This document shows positions 6,195 through 13,650 of a stretch of 13,650 bases of DNA, in pieces. The notes beneath the pieces are model-generated. The model was given only the letters and a program-made list of their open reading frames with translations, searched no databases and was not told the DNA's origin. The translations under genes and the position numbers were made by a program. This stretch comes from a virus: UHGV virus genome UHGV-0359675. One strand, 5' to 3'. Every line of letters starts with the position of its first letter. Within the stretch, counting starts at the first letter, position 1.

Positions 6195-7138
6195 GCAATC
6201 CCCCTGTCTGCAAACTTCCCTTCCCGAACTCCCGTTAACGAGTCTTCTCTCAGCAGGTAATCAAAATCAGCCGTCCAGCCCGTGTCGTTGTCTCCGAAGT
6301 AAAACGGCTTGGCCTGATGCACAAACGCCCTGACATACGCTCTGAAACCGTCCACGTTTGGCGTTTTCAGTTGCGGGATGATTTTCTTCAGGCGGCGTTT
6401 TCGTTTCTCGTTGACCGCAACAGCGTGTGGCAGTCTGTCACCGACTTCGGTGTTGTAGGCGTTCAGGAAGGATTCGTAGTCGATTCGTTCTGCCTTGCGA
6501 CGTTCAGGTTTAACCTGCCCATCGCCTCCCCCATTGGGGGGTAGGGGGGTATTATTTATATTCTTGTTAATACCTTCTTGTTCATGATGTGCGGTTGTTT
6601 GTGCGGCTTCATGTGCGCTTTCATGTGCGGCATGTACGCTGAAAGCCGCGCTATTGCTGGCTTCATCATGTGCGGCATCATGTGCGGTTGTTTGTGCGGC
6701 TTCATGTGCGGGTAAATTGTCCATTTTTTGAGCATATTCATGGTAATTTGTGATGGTTATCACACGGCCTTTTTGCTTCTCTCCATCAATGGAGATCATC
6801 CCCTCTTTCACAAAAACCTGAAGCATCCGCTCAACCTGATCACGGCTTGCTGGCTTGCCATGTCTGTCGCATAACTGAAGACCTAAATCAGCTGCTGTCA
6901 CAACCAGTTGACCGGGTTGCAGATGCCATTCATGACCTTTGAAATTCGCTTTGTATGGCTTTCTGGCGGCATTCAGGAGAAGGTTATCCCACAGGGTGCG
7001 AAGATAAACATCTTTCGCCCATGACTGTTTCAGAATGCTCCGGTACAACGGAATGTAACCAGTTTTCTGGTTCTCCATCCTGTTGCTCCTGCGCTCGTGT
7101 GCGGCGCTGAAATCGTAGATTTTTGCTGTATTGCTCAT
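6191..7138 (-). CDS. Replication initiator, O-like, with a His/Ala-rich repeat linker
   Basis: 315 aa. Position between cII and the helicase, and a central low-complexity linker ([16 protein letters not shown]...) encoded by the DNA repeat array, match the organisation of lambda O with its internal ori. Confidence 0.75.
6551..6711. repeat. Candidate origin of replication: 12-bp-periodic direct repeats (core TGTGCGG) in two clusters plus an adjacent AT-rich block
   Basis: Core TGTGCGG at 6588, 6600, 6624 and at 6669, 6681, 6693, 6705, with variants at 6612 and 6633. Each cluster has exact 12-bp phasing. AT-rich TATTATTTATATTCTTGTTAATA at 6551-6575 lies on the gene-downstream side, as in lambda ori. 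Confidence 0.5.
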
Positions 7139-7140
7139 AA

Positions 7141-7413
7141 CTACCTGCCTTGACGAAAGACCTTAAGAACATCGTTAAACTGACTTACGGATATGTCTTC
7201 TTTGAGAAGCTTTTCCAGAAATGCGTTTGGAATGAACGTATATCCCTCCTCTTTTGGTAGAGACGGGAGCAACGCCCTCGCCTCAGCCTTCAGAAGCTCA
7301 GTTCTGGCAACTTTCACAAAAGAGATTTGAGTTCTTTCATCAATGGAACGAAGGAAGCGCAAACGCTTAGCTTCTTTGTGTGTATCAGGTGGATTAAAGC
7401 CTTTGTTTCGCAT
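7141..7413 (-). CDS. Hypothetical 90-aa protein between cII and the O-like gene
   Basis: Start at the internal Met (MRNKGFNPPDTHKEAKRLRF...) has a GAGGT Shine-Dalgarno 7 nt upstream. The longer 181-aa track ORF overlaps cII out of frame and is rejected. No family recognised. Confidence 0.45.
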   Translation of the reverse strand: MRNKGFNPPDTHKEAKRLRFLRSIDERTQISFVKVARTELLKAEARALLPSLPKEEGYTFIPNAFLEKLLKEDISVSQFNDVLKVFRQGR

Positions 7414-7424
7414 ATAATTACCTC

Positions 7425-7490
7425 GTTGGATGTTGTTAAAATTCCATTTGTATTTGATCAGAACGCTCGGTTGCCGCCGGGCGTTTTTTA
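7425..7490 (+). ncRNA. oop: oop-like antisense RNA with toop terminator, overlapping the cII 3' end
   Basis: Perfect -10 TATAAT at 7413-7418 on the + strand. Terminator CGCTCGG-ttgccg-CCGGGCG then TTTTTTATT at 7464-7492, inside the cII 3' end and antisense to it. This is the lambda oop/toop arrangement; the sequence matches my recollection of lambda toop. Confidence 0.5.
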
Positions 7491-7729
7491 TTGGTGAGAA
7501 TCGAAGCAACTTGTCGTGCCAATCGAGCCATGTCGTCGTCGACAACACCCCATTCAAGAACAGCAAGCAGCATTGAGAACTTTGGAATCCAGTCCCTCTT
7601 CCACCTGCTGATCTGCGACTTATCAACGCCCACAGCTTCCGCTGTCTTCTCAGTTCCAAGCATTGCGATTTTGTTAAGCAACGCACTCTCGATTCTTAGA
7701 GCCTCGTTGCGTTTGTTTGCACGAACCAT
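7436..7729 (-). CDS. cII: Transcriptional activator CII (lambda-type)
   Basis: From the internal Met: MVRANKRNEALRIESALLNKIAMLGTEKTAEAVGVDKSQISRWKRDWIPKFSMLLAVLEWGVVDDDMARLARQVA.ILTNKKRPAATERS.QIQMEF, matching recalled lambda CII (97 aa). Shine-Dalgarno AAGGA is upstream. Confidence 0.9.
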   Translation of the reverse strand: MVRANKRNEALRIESALLNKIAMLGTEKTAEAVGVDKSQISRWKRDWIPKFSMLLAVLEWGVVDDDMARLARQVASILTNKKRPAATERSDQIQMEF

Positions 7730-7745
7730 ATGTAAGTATTTCCTT
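7707..7745 (+). promoter_or_regulatory. pRE-like promoter with CII-binding direct repeat TTGC-N6-TTGC
   Basis: TTGC (7707-7710), GTTTGT, TTGC (7717-7720) on the + strand, straddling the cII start and oriented toward cro/c2. This is the classic lambda pRE -35 architecture. Confidence 0.6.
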
Positions 7746-7785
7746 AACAAATAAGAAGTTATGCGCATCAACTTATGCGCGTTGT

Positions 7786-7831
7786 ATTCCCGCATTTCGG
7801 CGGGAATGAGGACCATGACTGTTAAAGAGCA
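7786..7831 (-). promoter_or_regulatory. nutR: boxA (TGCTCTTTAACA) plus boxB hairpin
   Basis: Minus sense: boxA TGCTCTTTAACA (7831..7820), a near-consensus rrn-type boxA. boxB ATTCCCGC-cgaaat-GCGGGAAT (7807..7786). Lies between the cro stop and cII start. The same boxB core recurs upstream of N. Confidence 0.6.
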
Positions 7832-7837
7832 ATTTGC

Positions 7838-8023
7838 TTATGCCGCTTTGCGGTAAGCGCTTTCTTGATACTTCAGGGCGCCAGCTGTAACGACTTCCAG
7901 TCGATAGGCGTCTTTCTCTGGGATGACTTCCTTCCACTGAGAGACTGCTGCGTCGCTAATGCCTAACGCTTTAGCTACAGCACGCTGGGTTCCGAAGTGG
8001 TCGATAACATCTTTCTTGTACAT
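7838..8023 (-). CDS. cro: Cro repressor (P22-type)
   Basis: 61 aa MYKKDVIDHFGTQRAVAKALGISDAAVSQWKEVIPEKDAYRLE.VTAGALKYQE.AYR.AA matches recalled P22 Cro. Divergent from the repressor gene across the operator region. Confidence 0.85.
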   Translation of the reverse strand: MYKKDVIDHFGTQRAVAKALGISDAAVSQWKEVIPEKDAYRLEVVTAGALKYQESAYRKAA

Positions 8024-8038
8024 AGACTCGCCCCGAAA

Positions 8039-8103
8039 TTAAAGAACACTTAAATTATCCACTAAAGGAATCTTAAGTCAAGTTTATTTAAGATGTCTTA
8101 ACT
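8039..8103. promoter_or_regulatory. OR operator region: three 18-bp P22-type operators with divergent pR and pRM
   Basis: Sites ATTAAAGAACACTTAAAT (8039-8056), ACTAAAGGAATCTTAAGT (8062-8079), ATTTAAGATGTCTTAACT (8086-8103), spaced 23-24 bp centre to centre. Minus-strand pR: -35 TTGACT (8081..8076), 16-nt spacer, -10 GATAAT (8059..8054). The c2 ATG at 8104 abuts the third operator with no Shine-Dalgarno, suggesting a leaderless pRM transcript. Confidence 0.7.
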
Positions 8104-8754
8104 ATGAAAACTCAATTGATGGGAGAGCGCATTCGCGCTCGGAGAAAAGAACTCAAGATCAGGCAGGCCGCACTTGGAAAGATGGTCGGCGTGTCTAATG
8201 TTGCCATATCTCAGTGGGAACGCTCTGAGACAGAGCCAAATGGAGAGAATCTTCTCGCCCTGGCTAATGCGTTGAAGTGTTCCCCTGACTATCTGATGAA
8301 AGGAGAGGAAAGTCTTTCAAACATTGCCTATCACAGTAGGCATGATCCAAGAGGGTCATACCCTCTGATTAGCTGGGTGAGCGCAGGATGCTGGATGGAA
8401 GCTGTAGAACCATATCATAAGCGTGCAATAGATAACTGGTACGATACAACCGTAGACTGTTCAGAAGATTCGTTTTGGTTGGACGTGAAGGGAGACTCAA
8501 TGACGGCTCCGGCCGGTCTCAGTATCCCTGAAGGAATGATAATACTCGTCGATCCTGAAGTAGAGCCGCGTAACGGGAAACTGGTAGTTGCAAAGCTCGA
8601 AGGAGAAAACGAGGCAACTTTCAAGAAGTTAGTTATTGATGCAGGCAGGAAGTTTCTAAAACCACTTAACCCACAATATCCGATGATCGAGATCAACGGA
8701 AACTGCAAAATCATCGGCGTAGTTGTCGATGCAAAACTAGCAAACCTTCCATAA
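8104..8754 (+). CDS. c2: Prophage repressor C2/CI (HTH N-terminal domain, LexA-like S24 autocleavage C-terminal domain)
   Basis: 216 aa, near-identical to recalled P22 C2 (MxTQLMGERIRARRK.LKIRQAALGKMVGVSNVAISQWERSETEPNGENLLAL...). GDSM serine motif and the downstream Lys are present. Confidence 0.9.
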   Translation: MKTQLMGERIRARRKELKIRQAALGKMVGVSNVAISQWERSETEPNGENLLALANALKCSPDYLMKGEESLSNIAYHSRHDPRGSYPLISWVSAGCWMEAVEPYHKRAIDNWYDTTVDCSEDSFWLDVKGDSMTAPAGLSIPEGMIILVDPEVEPRNGKLVVAKLEGENEATFKKLVIDAGRKFLKPLNPQYPMIEINGNCKIIGVVVDAKLANLP

Positions 8755-8779
8755 GGGGGCATTCGCCCCTTTTTTTTTA
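8755..8779 (+). terminator. Intrinsic terminator downstream of the repressor gene
   Basis: GGGGC-attc-GCCCC followed by TTTTTTTTTAT immediately after the c2 stop codon. Confidence 0.6.
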
Positions 8780-8821
8780 TTTCCTTTAAAAATCAAAGCT
8801 AAACTTAAGTTACGAAAGAAA

Positions 8822-8875
8822 ATTTAAGTTTTCTTCAAAAATACTCTTGACCATTAATTAAAGAGATCTTAAATT
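8822..8875 (+). promoter_or_regulatory. OL operators and pL promoter
   Basis: Operator-like 18-mers ATTTAAGTTTTCTTCAAA (8822-8839) and ATTAAAGAGATCTTAAAT (8857-8874). -35 TTGACC (8847-8852), 17-nt spacer, -10 TAAATT (8870-8875), directed toward nutL and N. Confidence 0.55.
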
Positions 8876-8920
8876 TAAGCCATCAGCAGGACGCTGGAAG
8901 CCAAACGGAAAAGATTGGCA

Positions 8921-8962
8921 GGCTCTTTAACATTGATGGGATTGTCCCGCCGAAATGCGGGA
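8921..8962 (+). promoter_or_regulatory. nutL: boxA (GGCTCTTTAACA) plus boxB hairpin
   Basis: boxA-like GGCTCTTTAACA at 8921-8932. boxB TCCCGC-cgaaat-GCGGGA at 8945-8962, sharing the 19-nt core TCCCGCCGAAATGCGGGAA with nutR in transcript sense. Confidence 0.6.
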
Positions 8963-9275
8963 ACCAAAGAGTAGTTGGCTTTGGGGTGACGTGAAGTGCA
9001 GCTGCACGACGGCAACCGGAAGATAAGCACCCGGCGCGTCACCGCCAAAGTCAATTCCATAGGCGTTATGCAGCCGCCACCATATTCAAGAAAGCTGCAC
9101 AAGAGGTAGGAGGATTTATGTGAATACTTACATTCAATTGAGAGATTAATTAAATAGAACTGATCGAGCAGAGTCCATAAAGGCTCATAAATGCTCTTCC
9201 ATCCCCGTCTAATTGGCGGGGAAGGAAACCACTTTGTAATAAAAAAATTCCAAAGTTGTTTCATCGGAGGTCAAC

Positions 9276-9575
9276 ATGACAGTAGTCATTACATATCTGG
9301 CTGACGATAACGCCAGAAATCGCCGCAGAGCACGCAGACAGGCTCAACGTGAACAGGCAATGCAAGAACAGCGACTGGCGCGAAAGATTGCGCTAAAGCT
9401 CTCTGGTTGCGTCAGAGCAGACAAAGCAGCATCACTCGGAAGCCTTCGCTGCAAGAAGGCAGAAGAAGTCGAGAGTAAACAGAATCGTATTTACTACCGC
9501 AAGCCACGCAGTGAAATGGGGGTGACTTGTGTTGGTCGCCAGAAAATGAAATTAGGAAGCAAACCACTTATTTGA
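9276..9575 (+). CDS. N: Antitermination protein N (lambda/21-type C terminus, distinct arginine-rich motif)
   Basis: 99 aa. N-terminal arginine-rich motif NARNRRRARRQAQREQ. C-terminal ...NRIYYRKPRSEMGVTCVGRQKMKLGSKPLI parallels recalled lambda N (...RTWYSKPGERGITCSGRQKIKGKSIPLI). Shine-Dalgarno GGAGG upstream. Confidence 0.8.
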   Translation: MTVVITYLADDNARNRRRARRQAQREQAMQEQRLARKIALKLSGCVRADKAASLGSLRCKKAEEVESKQNRIYYRKPRSEMGVTCVGRQKMKLGSKPLI

Positions 9576-9583
9576 GGTGATAT

Positions 9584-9670
9584 ATGGAAGAAGAATTTGA
9601 AGAGTTCGAAGAGCATCCGCAGGATGTGATGGAACAATACCAGGACTATCCTTATGACTACGACTATTGA
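9584..9670 (+). CDS. Candidate 28-aa highly acidic micro-protein (MEEEFEEFEEHPQDVMEQYQDYPYDYDY)
   Basis: Strong Shine-Dalgarno GAGGTG 5 nt upstream, overlapping the N stop. Hand-translated; below the 60-aa ORF-track cutoff. The same 17-nt initiation region recurs at 9904-9920. Confidence 0.35.
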   Translation: MEEEFEEFEEHPQDVMEQYQDYPYDYDY

Positions 9671-9854
9671 TAAGAATCAATGGTGTGGACAATTCAAGCG
9701 ATGCAATGGATGCAAGCTGCAATCGGAATGTATGGTTAAGCCTGAAGAAATGTTTCCTGTAATGGAAGATGGGAAATATGTCGATAAATGGGCAATACGA
9801 ACGACGGCAATGATTGCCAGAGAACTTAGTAAACAGAATAACAAGGCTGCCTGA
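9654..9854 (+). CDS. ral: Restriction-alleviation protein Ral-like
   Basis: 66 aa MTTTIDKNQWCGQFKRCNGCKLQSECMVKPEEMFPVMEDGKYVDKWAIRTTAMIARELSKQNNKAA matches my recollection of lambda Ral (66 aa). Position just downstream of N in the pL operon fits. Confidence 0.55.
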   Translation: MTTTIDKNQWCGQFKRCNGCKLQSECMVKPEEMFPVMEDGKYVDKWAIRTTAMIARELSKQNNKAA

Positions 9855-9912
9855 TGGTGGCCTTTATTTTTGTCCGTAAATAATTTCATGCTTATTACAA
9901 TCAAGGTGATAT

Positions 9913-10335
9913 ATGGAAGAACAAGCAAACAAGATTCTCGTAGAACTTCTGCAAAAAGCCAGTAATGGAATAGACGCGGCTGTTTCATTTAGCCAGGCAC
10001 AGATTCCTGATGTTGTTCGTCAGTTGCTAACATGGAGTTTTGTCCATAGCGCACTTTTCCAAGTGGCTGGGTTGTTGCTTTTAATTGCAGCAATGAAACT
10101 TCCTAGTTTTGCAAGAACGGCAAGAAATAATGGCGAGAGATGGACGTCTTTAGATGGATGTCCAAACGATAGATATTTTATATCTTCGTTTTATTACGAT
10201 ATATGCACTGTATTTGCTCCTATATTTGGCTCAATTATTGGCGTTTTAATTATTGCCTTCAATTTCGAATGGTTGAAGATTTGGCTTGCACCTAAGTTAT
10301 TCCTAATTGAATATGCAGCATCATTGGTTAAGTAA
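9913..10335 (+). CDS. Hypothetical 140-aa membrane protein with two predicted TM helices; possible superinfection-exclusion function (positional inference only)
   Basis: Hydrophobic segments SFVHSALFQVAGLLLLIAAMKL and FAPIFGSIIGVLIIAFNFEWLKIW. Follows ral, where lambda and P22 carry sieB. An intrinsic terminator follows at 10340-10366. Confidence 0.5.
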   Translation: MEEQANKILVELLQKASNGIDAAVSFSQAQIPDVVRQLLTWSFVHSALFQVAGLLLLIAAMKLPSFARTARNNGERWTSLDGCPNDRYFISSFYYDICTVFAPIFGSIIGVLIIAFNFEWLKIWLAPKLFLIEYAASLVK

Positions 10336-10339
10336 TTTC

Positions 10340-10366
10340 AGGCCGCATAGTCGGCCTTTATTTTTG
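10340..10366 (+). terminator. Intrinsic terminator after the membrane-protein gene
   Basis: AGGCCG-catagt-CGGCCT followed by TTATTTTTGG. Confidence 0.55.
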
Positions 10367-10484
10367 GCATAAACAACAGAATAAACACTGCACTGTGTAT
10401 TCATTCCAACGAGTGAATACACGGAGCAATGTCGCTCGTAACTAAACAGGAGCCGACTTGTTCTGATTGTTGGAAATCTTCTTT

Positions 10485-10512
10485 GCCCTCCAGTGTGAGG
10501 GCAATTTTTTTT
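10485..10512 (+). terminator. Intrinsic terminator immediately upstream of the 10525 gene start
   Basis: GCCCTC-cagtgt-GAGGGC followed by AATTTTTTTT, ending 13 nt before the GGAGG Shine-Dalgarno and ATG at 10525. Confidence 0.6.
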
Positions 10513-10524
10513 GATGGAGGATAT

Positions 10525-10875
10525 ATGAGTGAAGTAACAGATTTAGTTGTTATTGAAAAAGCAAATGCAATGACTGTATTTCAGTCTGCCGACCAGATTG
10601 AAGAAATTCTCCAAAAGGTTGAACGTGAAGTTATGTCATTTGTGCCTGATATCACAACGGCAAAGGGCAGAAAGGAGATCGCTTCTCTGGCGTATAAAGT
10701 TGCGCAGACGAAAACATATCTCGATGGTCTTGGCAAAGACCTTGTTGCTGAACTGAAGGAAATTCCAAAGCTAATTGATGCCAACCGCAAGACAGTGCGC
10801 GATCGCCTTGATGAACTGAAAGCCAAGGCGCGCCAGCCTCTTACTGATTATGAGGAAGAATCAGGCGCGGATTAA
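10525..10875 (+). CDS. Hypothetical 116-aa protein (predicted helical/coiled-coil)
   Basis: Start chosen at the internal Met with Shine-Dalgarno GGAGG (MSEVTDLVVIEKANAMTVF...). The upstream in-frame extension of the track ORF (from 10429) runs through the terminator and is rejected. Confidence 0.55.
   Translation: MSEVTDLVVIEKANAMTVFQSADQIEEILQKVEREVMSFVPDITTAKGRKEIASLAYKVAQTKTYLDGLGKDLVAELKEIPKLIDANRKTVRDRLDELKAKARQPLTDYEEESGAD

Positions 10876-11519: not shown

Positions 11520-13650
<2,131 letters not shown>

Follow-up and report, generated by a model that had tools for sequence, protein, structure and literature searches.

An HK620/CUS-3-type pair of nut sites whose boxB hairpin class follows the arginine-rich motif of N

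Two identical hairpin-forming repeats flank the immunity region in virus genome UHGV-0359675 (the window, the whole 13,650-nt stretch of DNA analysed here), and they raise two questions: are they the nutL and nutR sites of an N antitermination system, and do their boxB hairpin and the N protein encoded beside them form a recognition pair distinct from the lambda, P22 and phage 21 pairs? The window holds exactly two copies of the 19-mer TCCCGCCGAAATGCGGGAA, one at 8945–8963 on the plus strand (the nutL boxB) and one at 7787–7805 on the minus strand (the core of the nutR boxB); a third copy was not found in the window at up to two mismatches, and 0 of 200 shuffles gave a match. The boxA element GCTCTTTAACA likewise occurs exactly twice at up to one mismatch (8922–8932, plus strand; 7820–7830, minus strand), giving the RNA GCUCUUUAACA at both sites and, with its 5′ U, UGCUCUUUAACAG at nutR. 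This is close to the consensus of the rrn boxA, UGCUCUUUAACAA, which binds NusB/NusE and has the phage form CGCUCUU(U)A. The two boxA-boxB units, one downstream of pL and the other of pR, have the orientation of the early transcripts that diverge from these promoters. Between boxA and the 19-mer, nutL has 12 nt and nutR has 14 nt; at nutR the boxB stem extends to 8 bp (AUUCCCGC with GCGGGAAU, 7786–7807) and the gap to this longer stem is 12 nt. Folding of the 23-nt boxB core yielded a 6-bp stem (UCCCGC/GCGGGA) and the hexaloop CGAAAU at −10.5 kcal/mol (z = −3.0), a stability reached by 0 of 200 shuffles. The sequence-only reading from which this analysis started had described the hairpin repeat in transcript sense at both sites, its 6-bp stem and its CGAAAU loop, all of which are borne out; its boxA spacing of 12–13 nt was approximately right (12–14 nt to the 19-mer), and its near-consensus boxA is present, though common to phage 21 and closely similar in P22.

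The surrounding features were located by sequence scans and alignment. A pL-like promoter (TTGACC, 17 nt, TAAATT; 8847–8875, plus strand), with its start near 8882 by alignment to the annotated phage 21 pL start, precedes nutL, whose boxA lies at about +41; nutL falls between pL and the N gene (start 9276). On the other side, the transcript from a pR-like promoter (TTGACT, 16 nt, GATAAT; 8054–8081, minus strand) carries cro (P22_Cro family; 7838–8023, minus strand) upstream of nutR, which falls after the cro stop (7838) and before the start (7729) of its first downstream gene, a lambda-like cII of 97 aa (7436–7729, minus strand; full-length match to Pfam Phage_CII, E = 5e-48). A cI/C2-type repressor gene with HTH and peptidase S24 domains (8104–8754, plus strand) sits between nutL and nutR. 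Terminator-like hairpins with T-runs are present downstream in the pL operon, all on the plus strand: one after ral, a candidate target of N read-through (9843–9864), and two from the terminator scan (10340–10357 and 10483–10504) that correspond to the terminators previously noted near 10340 and 10485. On the right side, just a weak hairpin (7763–7780) and the place of the HK620 ‘tR1’ annotation were seen. An Rfam scan of 7000–10700 at E ≤ 1 gave no match at either nut site; a below-threshold STnc230 match fell at 9832–9912.

The closest known relatives answer much of the first question. Window 7000–10600 is 100% identical to E. coli phage CUS-3 (CP000711), and phage HK620 (GenBank AF335538, Clark et al. 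2001) has boxA, spacer and boxB the same base for base at both sites, in units that its record labels ‘nutL/nutR; putative’. Comparison with catalogued lambdoid nut sites, proposed from the sequence at the outset, thus ends in identity. HK620 and the window share two stretches, one running on from the pL start and the other from boxA-R; their immunity genes are different, HK620 having a 434-like cI and a lambda-like cro. HK620 N matches the CUS-3-type N over residues 1–56, with the whole arginine-rich motif (ARM) included, and ends in a P22/H-19B-type C-terminus (...AIYAAGYRKSKQLTAR). The HK620 N leader is without a ~206-bp insertion, which in the window accounts for the 313 nt between nutL and N. 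In the CUS-3 record the nut sites are unannotated and the cII CDS is drawn over nutR; the record also labels window 8755–9256 (8756–9257 in locus L001) ‘bsq5; boundary sequence’, a segment with nutL inside it. We are highly confident that the paired sites are nutL and nutR of an HK620/CUS-3-type N antitermination module, and the sites are real and, as nut sites, almost certainly functional. They are also ordinary and already known: because they have been annotated in HK620 since 2001, the sites are not new, and such an early antitermination module, being what one expects of a lambdoid prophage, has little discovery value. The annotation value is that nut sites are missing from CUS-3 and from many E. 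coli prophage annotations. Literature searches on CUS-3, HK620 and boxB returned general or other-phage papers, with no experiment on this N-boxB pair found among them, and a full-text search for the boxB or ARM strings matched no paper.

The second question is best approached through the phages whose nut sites are annotated. In phage 21, P22 and lambda these sites are placed and oriented as in the window, with boxA, spacer and hairpin in the same arrangement. Phage 21 carries an identical boxA at both sites, aligned as ‘boxA-L’ and ‘boxA-R’ with those of the window, together with a homologous pL leader and cro 3′ end, identical N residues 34–62 and a near-identical N C-terminus. Between these homologous flanks, both boxB hairpins and the N ARM have been replaced together: the phage 21 hairpins, UCUCAAC-CUAACC-GUUGAGA and UCACCU-CUAACC-GGGUGA, are unlike the CUS-3-type boxB in stem and loop, its ARM (GTAKSRYKARRAELIAERR) is unlike the CUS-3-type ARM, and its boxA-boxB spacer is 9–10 nt, as against 12 here. 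Common to both is a hexaloop with pyrimidines around four central bases, and the phage 21 loop CUAACC folds in a GNRA-like manner, with a C-C pair flanking the fold (NMR structure PDB 1NYB; PMC12550061). In P22 the boxA elements, GCTCTTTAAC (nutL) and GCTCTTTACC (nutR), closely resemble the CUS-3-type one, and the nutR boxB, CCGC-C-GACAA-C-GCGG, is built to the same plan in stem and C-flanked loop; its stem and first loop bases are near those of the window (CCGCCGACAACGCGG versus CCGCCGAAAUGCGG). The P22 GACAA pentaloop extrudes a C that the peptide contacts (1A4T; PMC12550061), whereas the CUS-3-type GAAA has nothing to extrude. Lambda shares the overall architecture, with a weaker boxA (CGCUCUUA) and a boxB of 5-bp stem and U-A-closed pentaloop, GAAAA or GAAGA.

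The N gene, annotated as N in CUS-3, encodes 99 aa (9276–9575, plus strand), with the ARM DDNARNRRRARRQAQREQAM placed at residues 10–29 (nt 9303–9362) by alignment with reference N proteins. The protein is directly homologous to experimentally characterised N proteins. Identity to phage 21 N is 70%, residues 34–99 being nearly identical and the ARM replaced, and residues 63–99 match lambda N in PDB 6GOV (chain 6gov_N; E = 9e-4), whose C-terminal RNA polymerase-binding segment is homologous. No part of N is more conserved across 109 distinct relatives than the ARM region. The motif shares A13, R16, R20 and R21 with all three reference proteins (lambda, P22 and phage 21), yet has Ala or Met at the position of lambda Trp18, which is without equivalent in CUS-3-type N, and Arg18 at the position of the P22 His. 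Lambda N and CUS-3-type N share an RRRxRR core with a Q/A-rich helix after it. P22 N (gp24) and CUS-3-type N both start MTV(V)ITY and contain a core NA(K/R)xRR..RR, outside which the two ARMs are unlike (RHERRRKLAIERD versus RRARRQAQREQAM). Against Pfam N_peptide (PF25694) N scored 18 bits (E = 0.004), below the 27.9 cut-off, and an NCBIfam search with N gave no match; the Pfam model is evidently narrow.

To relate ARM and boxB across genomes, loci were picked by N homology and not by boxB, which was then located by anchored searches. The ARM ARNRRRARR occurs with a CGAAAU boxB at nutL in 17 of 17 loci and at nutR in 17 of 17; the phage 21 ARM occurs with a CUAACC-type loop at nutL in 65 of 66 loci, and the P22 ARM pairs with a GACAA boxB. 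A scan of species-representative genomes yielded 7 loci. In one E. albertii locus a P22 ARM stands on an HK620-type N C-terminus, and the boxB there is of P22 type. More generally, the same three N C-terminal types occur with both ARM types, and boxB tracks the ARM, not the C-terminus. Both nut sites are of the CGAAAU class in 144 loci, which fall into 33 immunity-region clusters (including lambda cI, P22 C2-like and 434/HK620-like repressors) and carry several N C-termini; nutR lies 1.1–3.7 kb from N in these loci, yet always matches. Two further loci share the boxA and spacer; their ARM is unrelated and their boxB is of another kind, with the loop CC(A/U)U. Mixing of ARM and boxB classes was not seen among the loci classified. 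A nutL stretch query, which includes flanks common with phage 21, matched ~10% of complete E. coli genomes. Copies from E. coli are close to clonal, so that large counts do not represent independent events. At both nut sites the boxB type can be told from the ARM type, whatever the N C-terminus or immunity cassette. This natural co-segregation strongly supports the earlier proposal of a matched N-boxB pair, and the components of that proposal hold: the boxB differs from those of lambda and P22, and from that of phage 21 too, and the ARM is distinct in alignment with all three N proteins.

Diverged relatives extend the pattern. These include Erwinia phage vB_EhrS_49, found by DNA query, and keep the ARM core SDNARNRRRA(R/K)RA; a tblastn search with the 33-aa diverged ARM gave no match. 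Of 42 loci retrieved by a pattern that left the nutL loop stretch open, 40 have CGAAAU, CGAGAU or AGAGAU as their nutL loop, in short (C/A)-GNRA-U. The nutR loops of diverged relatives are CGAAAU, CGAGAU or CGCAAU, in a search that presupposed the (C/A)-GNRA-U form. Pairing of the boxB stem is maintained in 93% of cells, with three pairs changed on both sides, against 41–66% for slid controls, in a hairpin set partly selected for pairing in the inner six pairs. In the nutR hairpins of the diverged, Erwinia-type subfamily a mismatch at the third pair of the stem is conserved, and the simple model leaves it unexplained.

Could the repeats act as something other than nut RNA? They might work as DNA, either as palindromic protein-binding sites or, in keeping with the CUS-3 ‘boundary sequence’ label that takes in nutL and with the position of the boxA-boxB unit at mosaic junctions between HK620 and the window, as patches of homology for mosaic recombination. 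A symmetric DNA site, however, needs neither the asymmetric CGAAAU loop nor a boxA that is always in transcript sense; the compensatory stem changes keep pairing and not sequence, the boxB class goes with the ARM of N, a protein whose homologues bind RNA, and the operators lie elsewhere, at promoters. A DNA operator or palindrome was rejected on the constant sense of loop and boxA and on the compensatory stem changes, and a role in recombination would be compatible with nut function and not an alternative to it. We consider the DNA-level explanation highly improbable. That the hairpins are instead N-independent intrinsic terminators or attenuators of the early transcripts is suggested by their GC-rich character, by their position just after cro and pL, where tR1-like control occurs, and by the HK620 tR1 annotated directly after nutR. 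An intrinsic terminator was rejected because a T-run is missing after both copies (AACCAAAG and UACAACGC), and neither copy is among 13 terminator-like scan matches; with boxA before both, and with annotated nut sites at the homologous positions of lambda, P22 and phage 21, we give this explanation practically no credence.

A more serious alternative accepts the nut sites and denies them a separate specificity, the GNRA-type boxB being recognised by P22 N, lambda N or both and the pair thus overlapping in function with a known class. In stem and 5′ loop bases the boxB is nearly that of P22 nutR (CCGC-CGACAAC-GCGG versus CCGC-CGAAAU-GCGG), and for this reason partial cross-recognition with P22 is possible; the N start MTVVITY... 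resembles P22 MTVITY..., four ARM residues are shared with all three reference proteins, and GNRA-like loop variants are reportedly tolerated by lambda and P22 N. Yet no classified locus mixes the classes, despite the 33 immunity cassettes between nutR and N; the E. albertii N with a P22 ARM on an HK620-type C-terminus goes with a P22 boxB; and the residues that replace lambda Trp18 and the P22 His differ from both. Shared recognition appears rather unlikely to us, and a separate N-boxB specificity is what we infer.

By homology with lambda, P22 and phage 21, the HK620/CUS-3-type module would work as follows. RNA polymerase starting at pL or pR would transcribe boxA and then boxB; the boxA RNA would recruit host NusB-NusE(S10), and the boxB hairpin would be bound by the N-terminal arginine-rich helix of N (residues ~10–29). 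The lambda/phage 21-like C-terminus of N, with NusA and NusG, would lock onto the elongating polymerase, which would then resist the terminators at 9843, 10340 and 10483 in the pL transcript and those of the tR1 region, ahead of cII, in the pR transcript. Specificity would be seated in the ARM-boxB pair. The analysis itself establishes sequence, fold, position, homology, co-segregation and covariation; N binding, Nus dependence, read-through and loop geometry are all predictions of this scheme. In the hexaloop C-GAAA-U the four central bases most likely form a canonical GNRA tetraloop, with a non-canonical C·U pair to close it, by analogy with C-UAAC-C of phage 21, which is closed by a C·C pair. 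A GNRA tetraloop closed by C·U or A-U would stand between the pentaloops of lambda and P22 and the hexaloop of phage 21.

We lean, somewhat beyond even expectation, towards a broader reading in which the ARM NARNRRRA(R/K)R... and the (C/A)-GNRA-U boxB make up a widespread fourth N-boxB pair, found with at least 33 immunity types and as far as Erwinia phages, and biochemically orthogonal to lambda, P22 and phage 21, the peptide reading an unmodified GNRA tetraloop, closed by C·U or A-U, with no extruded base. If true, the pair would be structurally intermediate between the two earlier solutions, pentaloop and hexaloop, and, if orthogonal, would provide a new RNA-tethering tag, a compact peptide-hairpin pair to set beside the tools based on N of lambda, P22 and phage 21. 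For evolution, the module offers a clean natural case in which a protein motif is exchanged together with two distant RNA sites as one functional unit, the DNA between them being shuffled among dozens of immunity cassettes.

One further element of the N leader lies directly downstream of the nutL boxB. A hairpin (CCAAAG...CUUUGG) followed by the GU-rich GGGGUGACGUG occupies 8964–8991 on the plus strand and has conserved counterparts in lambda, in phage 21 and in the diverged loci; by analogy it may function as a boxC-like N-leader element.

The 13,650-bp window holds exactly two copies of the 19-mer TCCCGCCGAAATGCGGGAA, at 8945–8963 (+) and 7787–7805 (−); a third copy was not found there with up to two mismatches allowed, and the sequence was absent from 200/200 dinucleotide-preserving shuffles. 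Its boxB core folds into a CGAAAU hexaloop on a 6-bp stem (−10.5 kcal/mol, z = −3.0), a fold equalled by 0/200 shuffles. The boxA GCTCTTTAACA likewise has exactly two copies (8922–8932, +, and 7820–7830, −), separated from the 19-mer by 12 nt at nutL and by 14 nt at nutR, or 12 nt if measured to the extended 8-bp stem of nutR boxB (AUUCCCGC/GCGGGAAU; 7807..7786, −), the span that the sequence-only reading had assigned to nutR. Each boxA–hairpin unit lies in the sense of one divergent early transcript, one between pL and N and the other between cro and cII: consensus scans placed a pL-like promoter at 8847–8875 (+) and a pR-like promoter at 8081–8054 (−), and Pfam identified a P22_Cro-type cro (7838–8023, −), a repressor with HTH and peptidase S24 domains (8104–8754, +) and a lambda-type cII of 97 aa, matched over its full length and starting at 7729 (−). 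Every defining feature of a lambdoid nut site that can be checked from sequence is present; Rfam gave no match at either site. The exact repeat and its fold, together with the promoter scans and neighbouring genes, confirm the earlier observation of matching hairpins placed in transcript sense, and its interpretation is supported.

The nut feature is in itself ordinary and already annotated in HK620. Because the HK620 entry (AF335538, which accompanied Clark et al. 2001) has two features, labelled "nutL; putative N-utilization leftward" and "nutR; putative N-utilization rightward", in which boxA, spacer and boxB are exactly those of the window, the sites were already known at annotation level; HK620 N equals window N through residue 56. 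Over 7000–10600 the window shows 100% identity with Enterobacteria phage CUS-3 (CP000711), which resides in E. coli K1 strain RS218 as a P22-like prophage. In order of increasing window coordinate, the CUS-3 record lists cII, cro, cI, a "boundary sequence" (bsq5), N and ral, and it annotates no nut sites. The cII CDS of that record (126 aa, start 7816) crosses nutR (window 7730–7816, −) and is probably over-extended, as the 97-aa cII from 7729 fits Pfam Phage_CII full length.

The phage 21 record (OL657228) annotates boxA-L, nutL, boxA-R, nutR and the pL start. On alignment, window and phage 21 share the pL leader, boxA, the cro 3′ end and the sequence after boxB, whereas both boxB hairpins are replaced (UCUCAAC-CUAACC-GUUGAGA and UCACCU-CUAACC-GGGUGA in phage 21). 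N residues 34–99 are near-identical, whereas the arginine-rich motif (ARM) is DDNARNRRRARRQAQREQAM in the window and GTAKSRYKARRAELIAERR in phage 21; boxB and ARM also differ from those of lambda and P22, as the sequence-only reading held. Window N is clearly and directly homologous to phage 21 and lambda N by sequence comparison; its C-terminus aligns with the lambda N chain of 6GOV, a cryo-EM antitermination complex (E = 9e-4), and it scores below threshold against the Pfam N_peptide model (18 vs 27.9 bits).

An exact-match scan recovered the boxB from >120 IMG/VR contigs, most often as two divergent copies whose spacings form several classes, and the downstream N of these boxB-selected loci always carries the HK620/CUS-3-type ARM, on several C-terminal domains. 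Since this set had been picked by boxB, a second was gathered by N homology alone. There, the ARM ARNRRRARR accompanied a CGAAAU boxB in 17/17 cases at nutL and 17/17 at nutR, and the phage 21 ARM AKSRYKARR accompanied a CUAACC or CUAAUC loop in 65/66 at nutL. The nutR loops of phage 21 ARM loci were CUAACC, CUAACA, CUAACU or CUAAUC, and the single locus with a P22 ARM had the boxB loop GACAA. Three N C-termini (...KLGSKPLI, ...GKSIPAYYD and ...YSKPPYGAY) were found with both ARMs, the boxB tracking the ARM, and in one E. albertii locus, where a P22 ARM is joined to a C-terminus of HK620 type, the boxB is that of P22. This agreement of ARM and boxB type at both nut sites strongly supports the proposed N–boxB pair. 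At nutL, 100–300 nt from the ARM codons, the match could reflect hitch-hiking. The nutR site lies 1.1–3.7 kb away, and the 144 loci with both nut sites of the HK620/CUS-3 class sort into 33 distinct clusters by their intervening cro–operator–repressor DNA, including lambda cI, P22 C2-like and 434/HK620-like repressors; nutR always matches the ARM although this segment has been exchanged many times, and of the computational evidence this argues most strongly that the ARM–boxB pair is functional. As the E. coli copies are nearly clonal, the counts do not represent independent events. Two IMG/VR loci (L244 and L247) combine the same boxA and spacer with an unrelated ARM, SNSVTRRYLKRGELMAKRR, an N starting MT(N/K)..ASNSVTRRYLKRGELMAKRRAEA and, at nutL and nutR alike, a CC(A/U)U tetraloop (CCUU and CCAU, respectively); they carry another N/nut class, one more ARM–boxB co-replacement.

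Diverged loci were retrieved by the pattern boxA + spacer, N28, CAAAG, with the boxB region left unspecified. This yielded 42 further loci with longer-stem variants, one being Erwinia phage vB_EhrS_49 (NC_048197), whose annotated N starts MTIVMTYLASDNARNRRRAKRAAER and whose nutR lies between lambda-type cro and cII. The nutL boxB is of the HK620/CUS-3 class in 40/42; N was readable in 37 of these 40, with 34 exact for DNARNRRRA(R/K)R and the other three off by one or two positions, and varies outside this motif. Residues 1–21 are the best-conserved part of N across 109 distinct sequences of the class. Loops at nutL were CGAAAU, CGAGAU or AGAGAU, a result that is unbiased because the region was unspecified in the search; those at nutR were CGAAAU, CGCAAU or CGAGAU, from a search that demanded NGNRAN and hence is no proof of GNRA conservation. 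The central four bases are always GNRA (presupposed at nutR), flanked by C..U or A..U, the latter able to pair. The phage 21 CUAACC loop adopts a GNRA-like UAAC fold with a flanking C-C pair, and the lambda and P22 pentaloops form GNRA folds with one base extruded (PMC12550061); from these folds we infer by analogy that the window boxB presents a GNRA tetraloop of plain form, with C·U or A-U as its closing pair. Across 21 distinct hairpins, which had been selected partly for pairing at the inner six positions but not at the outermost one, 93% of stem cells are paired, against 41–66% and almost no double changes in slid controls, and in three pairs both partners changed (two U-A to C-G, one G-C to A-U). 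The third stem pair of nutR boxB in the diverged subfamily (L255, which is vB_EhrS_49, and L214–L254) is consistently mismatched (C·C, C·A or C·U), whereas nutL is fully paired.

These compensatory stem changes speak against a DNA-level palindrome. That reading, or one of mere recombination "boundary sequence", could draw on the bsq5 label of the nutL region in the CUS-3 record, and is further contradicted by the asymmetric loop and the boxA, both constantly in transcript-sense orientation; a recombination role can be compatible with nut function. Overlap of the boxB specificity with that of P22 or lambda N is possible: the P22 nutR boxB (CCGC-CGACAAC-GCGG) is close to that of the window (CCGC-CGAAAU-GCGG) and the two N-termini are alike, although no naturally mixed ARM/boxB pair was seen among the loci compared. 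An intrinsic terminator is excluded, with no T-run after either hairpin and neither among the terminator-like hits of the scan.

The sequence-level prerequisites for N antitermination are present in the window. By homology, boxA RNA would recruit NusB–NusE, and the N ARM would bind boxB RNA; the N C-terminus, of lambda/phage 21 type, would then, with NusA and NusG, make RNA polymerase termination-resistant, allowing it to read through the terminator-like hairpins detected by scan in the leftward operon (9843–9864, 10340–10357 and 10483–10504, all +) and the tR1 region before cII. We thus infer N binding, Nus dependence and read-through in the window's phage by analogy. The candidate tR1 region is window 7748–7786 (−): "tR1" in the HK620 record is equivalent to window 7780–7786, and 3′ of nutR boxB a perfect 6-bp hairpin, GCGCAU-AAGUUG-AUGCGC (7763–7780, −), precedes a T-rich but weak tail. 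Directly 3′ of nutL boxB (8964–8991, +), a second hairpin, CCAAAG-AGUAGUUGG-CUUUGG, is followed by GGGGUGACGUG; both elements are kept in lambda, phage 21 and the diverged loci, and are akin to the lambda boxC/N-leader stem. A sub-threshold Rfam match to the STnc230 sRNA (9832–9912, −; 27 bits, gathering score 50; E = 0.56) overlaps the post-ral terminator-like hairpin and is probably due to chance.

A 151-nt nutL stretch matched 553/5,426 complete E. coli genomes (432 over ≥80% of its length), although the query includes flanks common to phage 21 and some weaker matches may represent other nut types. No experimental study of the HK620/CUS-3-type N–boxB pair was found in the literature searched; the remaining interest is that a common pair, probably using a canonical GNRA tetraloop, has apparently never been characterised biochemically.

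Relative to HK620, the N leader carries a ~206-bp insertion (~9056–9261) downstream of nutL and upstream of the N ribosome-binding site, the nutL-to-N distance being 313 nt vs 106 nt; CUS-3 alone among deposited phages shares it, and the same spacing recurs in about 9 of some 100 IMG/VR loci. The insertion holds a strong Shine-Dalgarno sequence, AGGAGG (9108–9113), then ATG-TGA or a 9-codon GTG ORF, as well as a hairpin, CCCCG...CGGGG (9203–9221), and may influence how N is translated or the leader processed. Three single-base differences (22, 6986 and 8032) separate the window from the CUS-3 record across the 11.7 kb that they share, that at 8032 lying in the cro 5′ leader, just 5′ of the start codon. 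The prophage kil gene is interrupted relative to CUS-3 by a 1954-bp IS21-family (IS100-like) element (11697–13650), a junction present in no complete RefSeq E. coli genome of the collection searched; the element encodes istA (11783–12805) and istB (12802–13584), and its right inverted repeat forms the exact window end.
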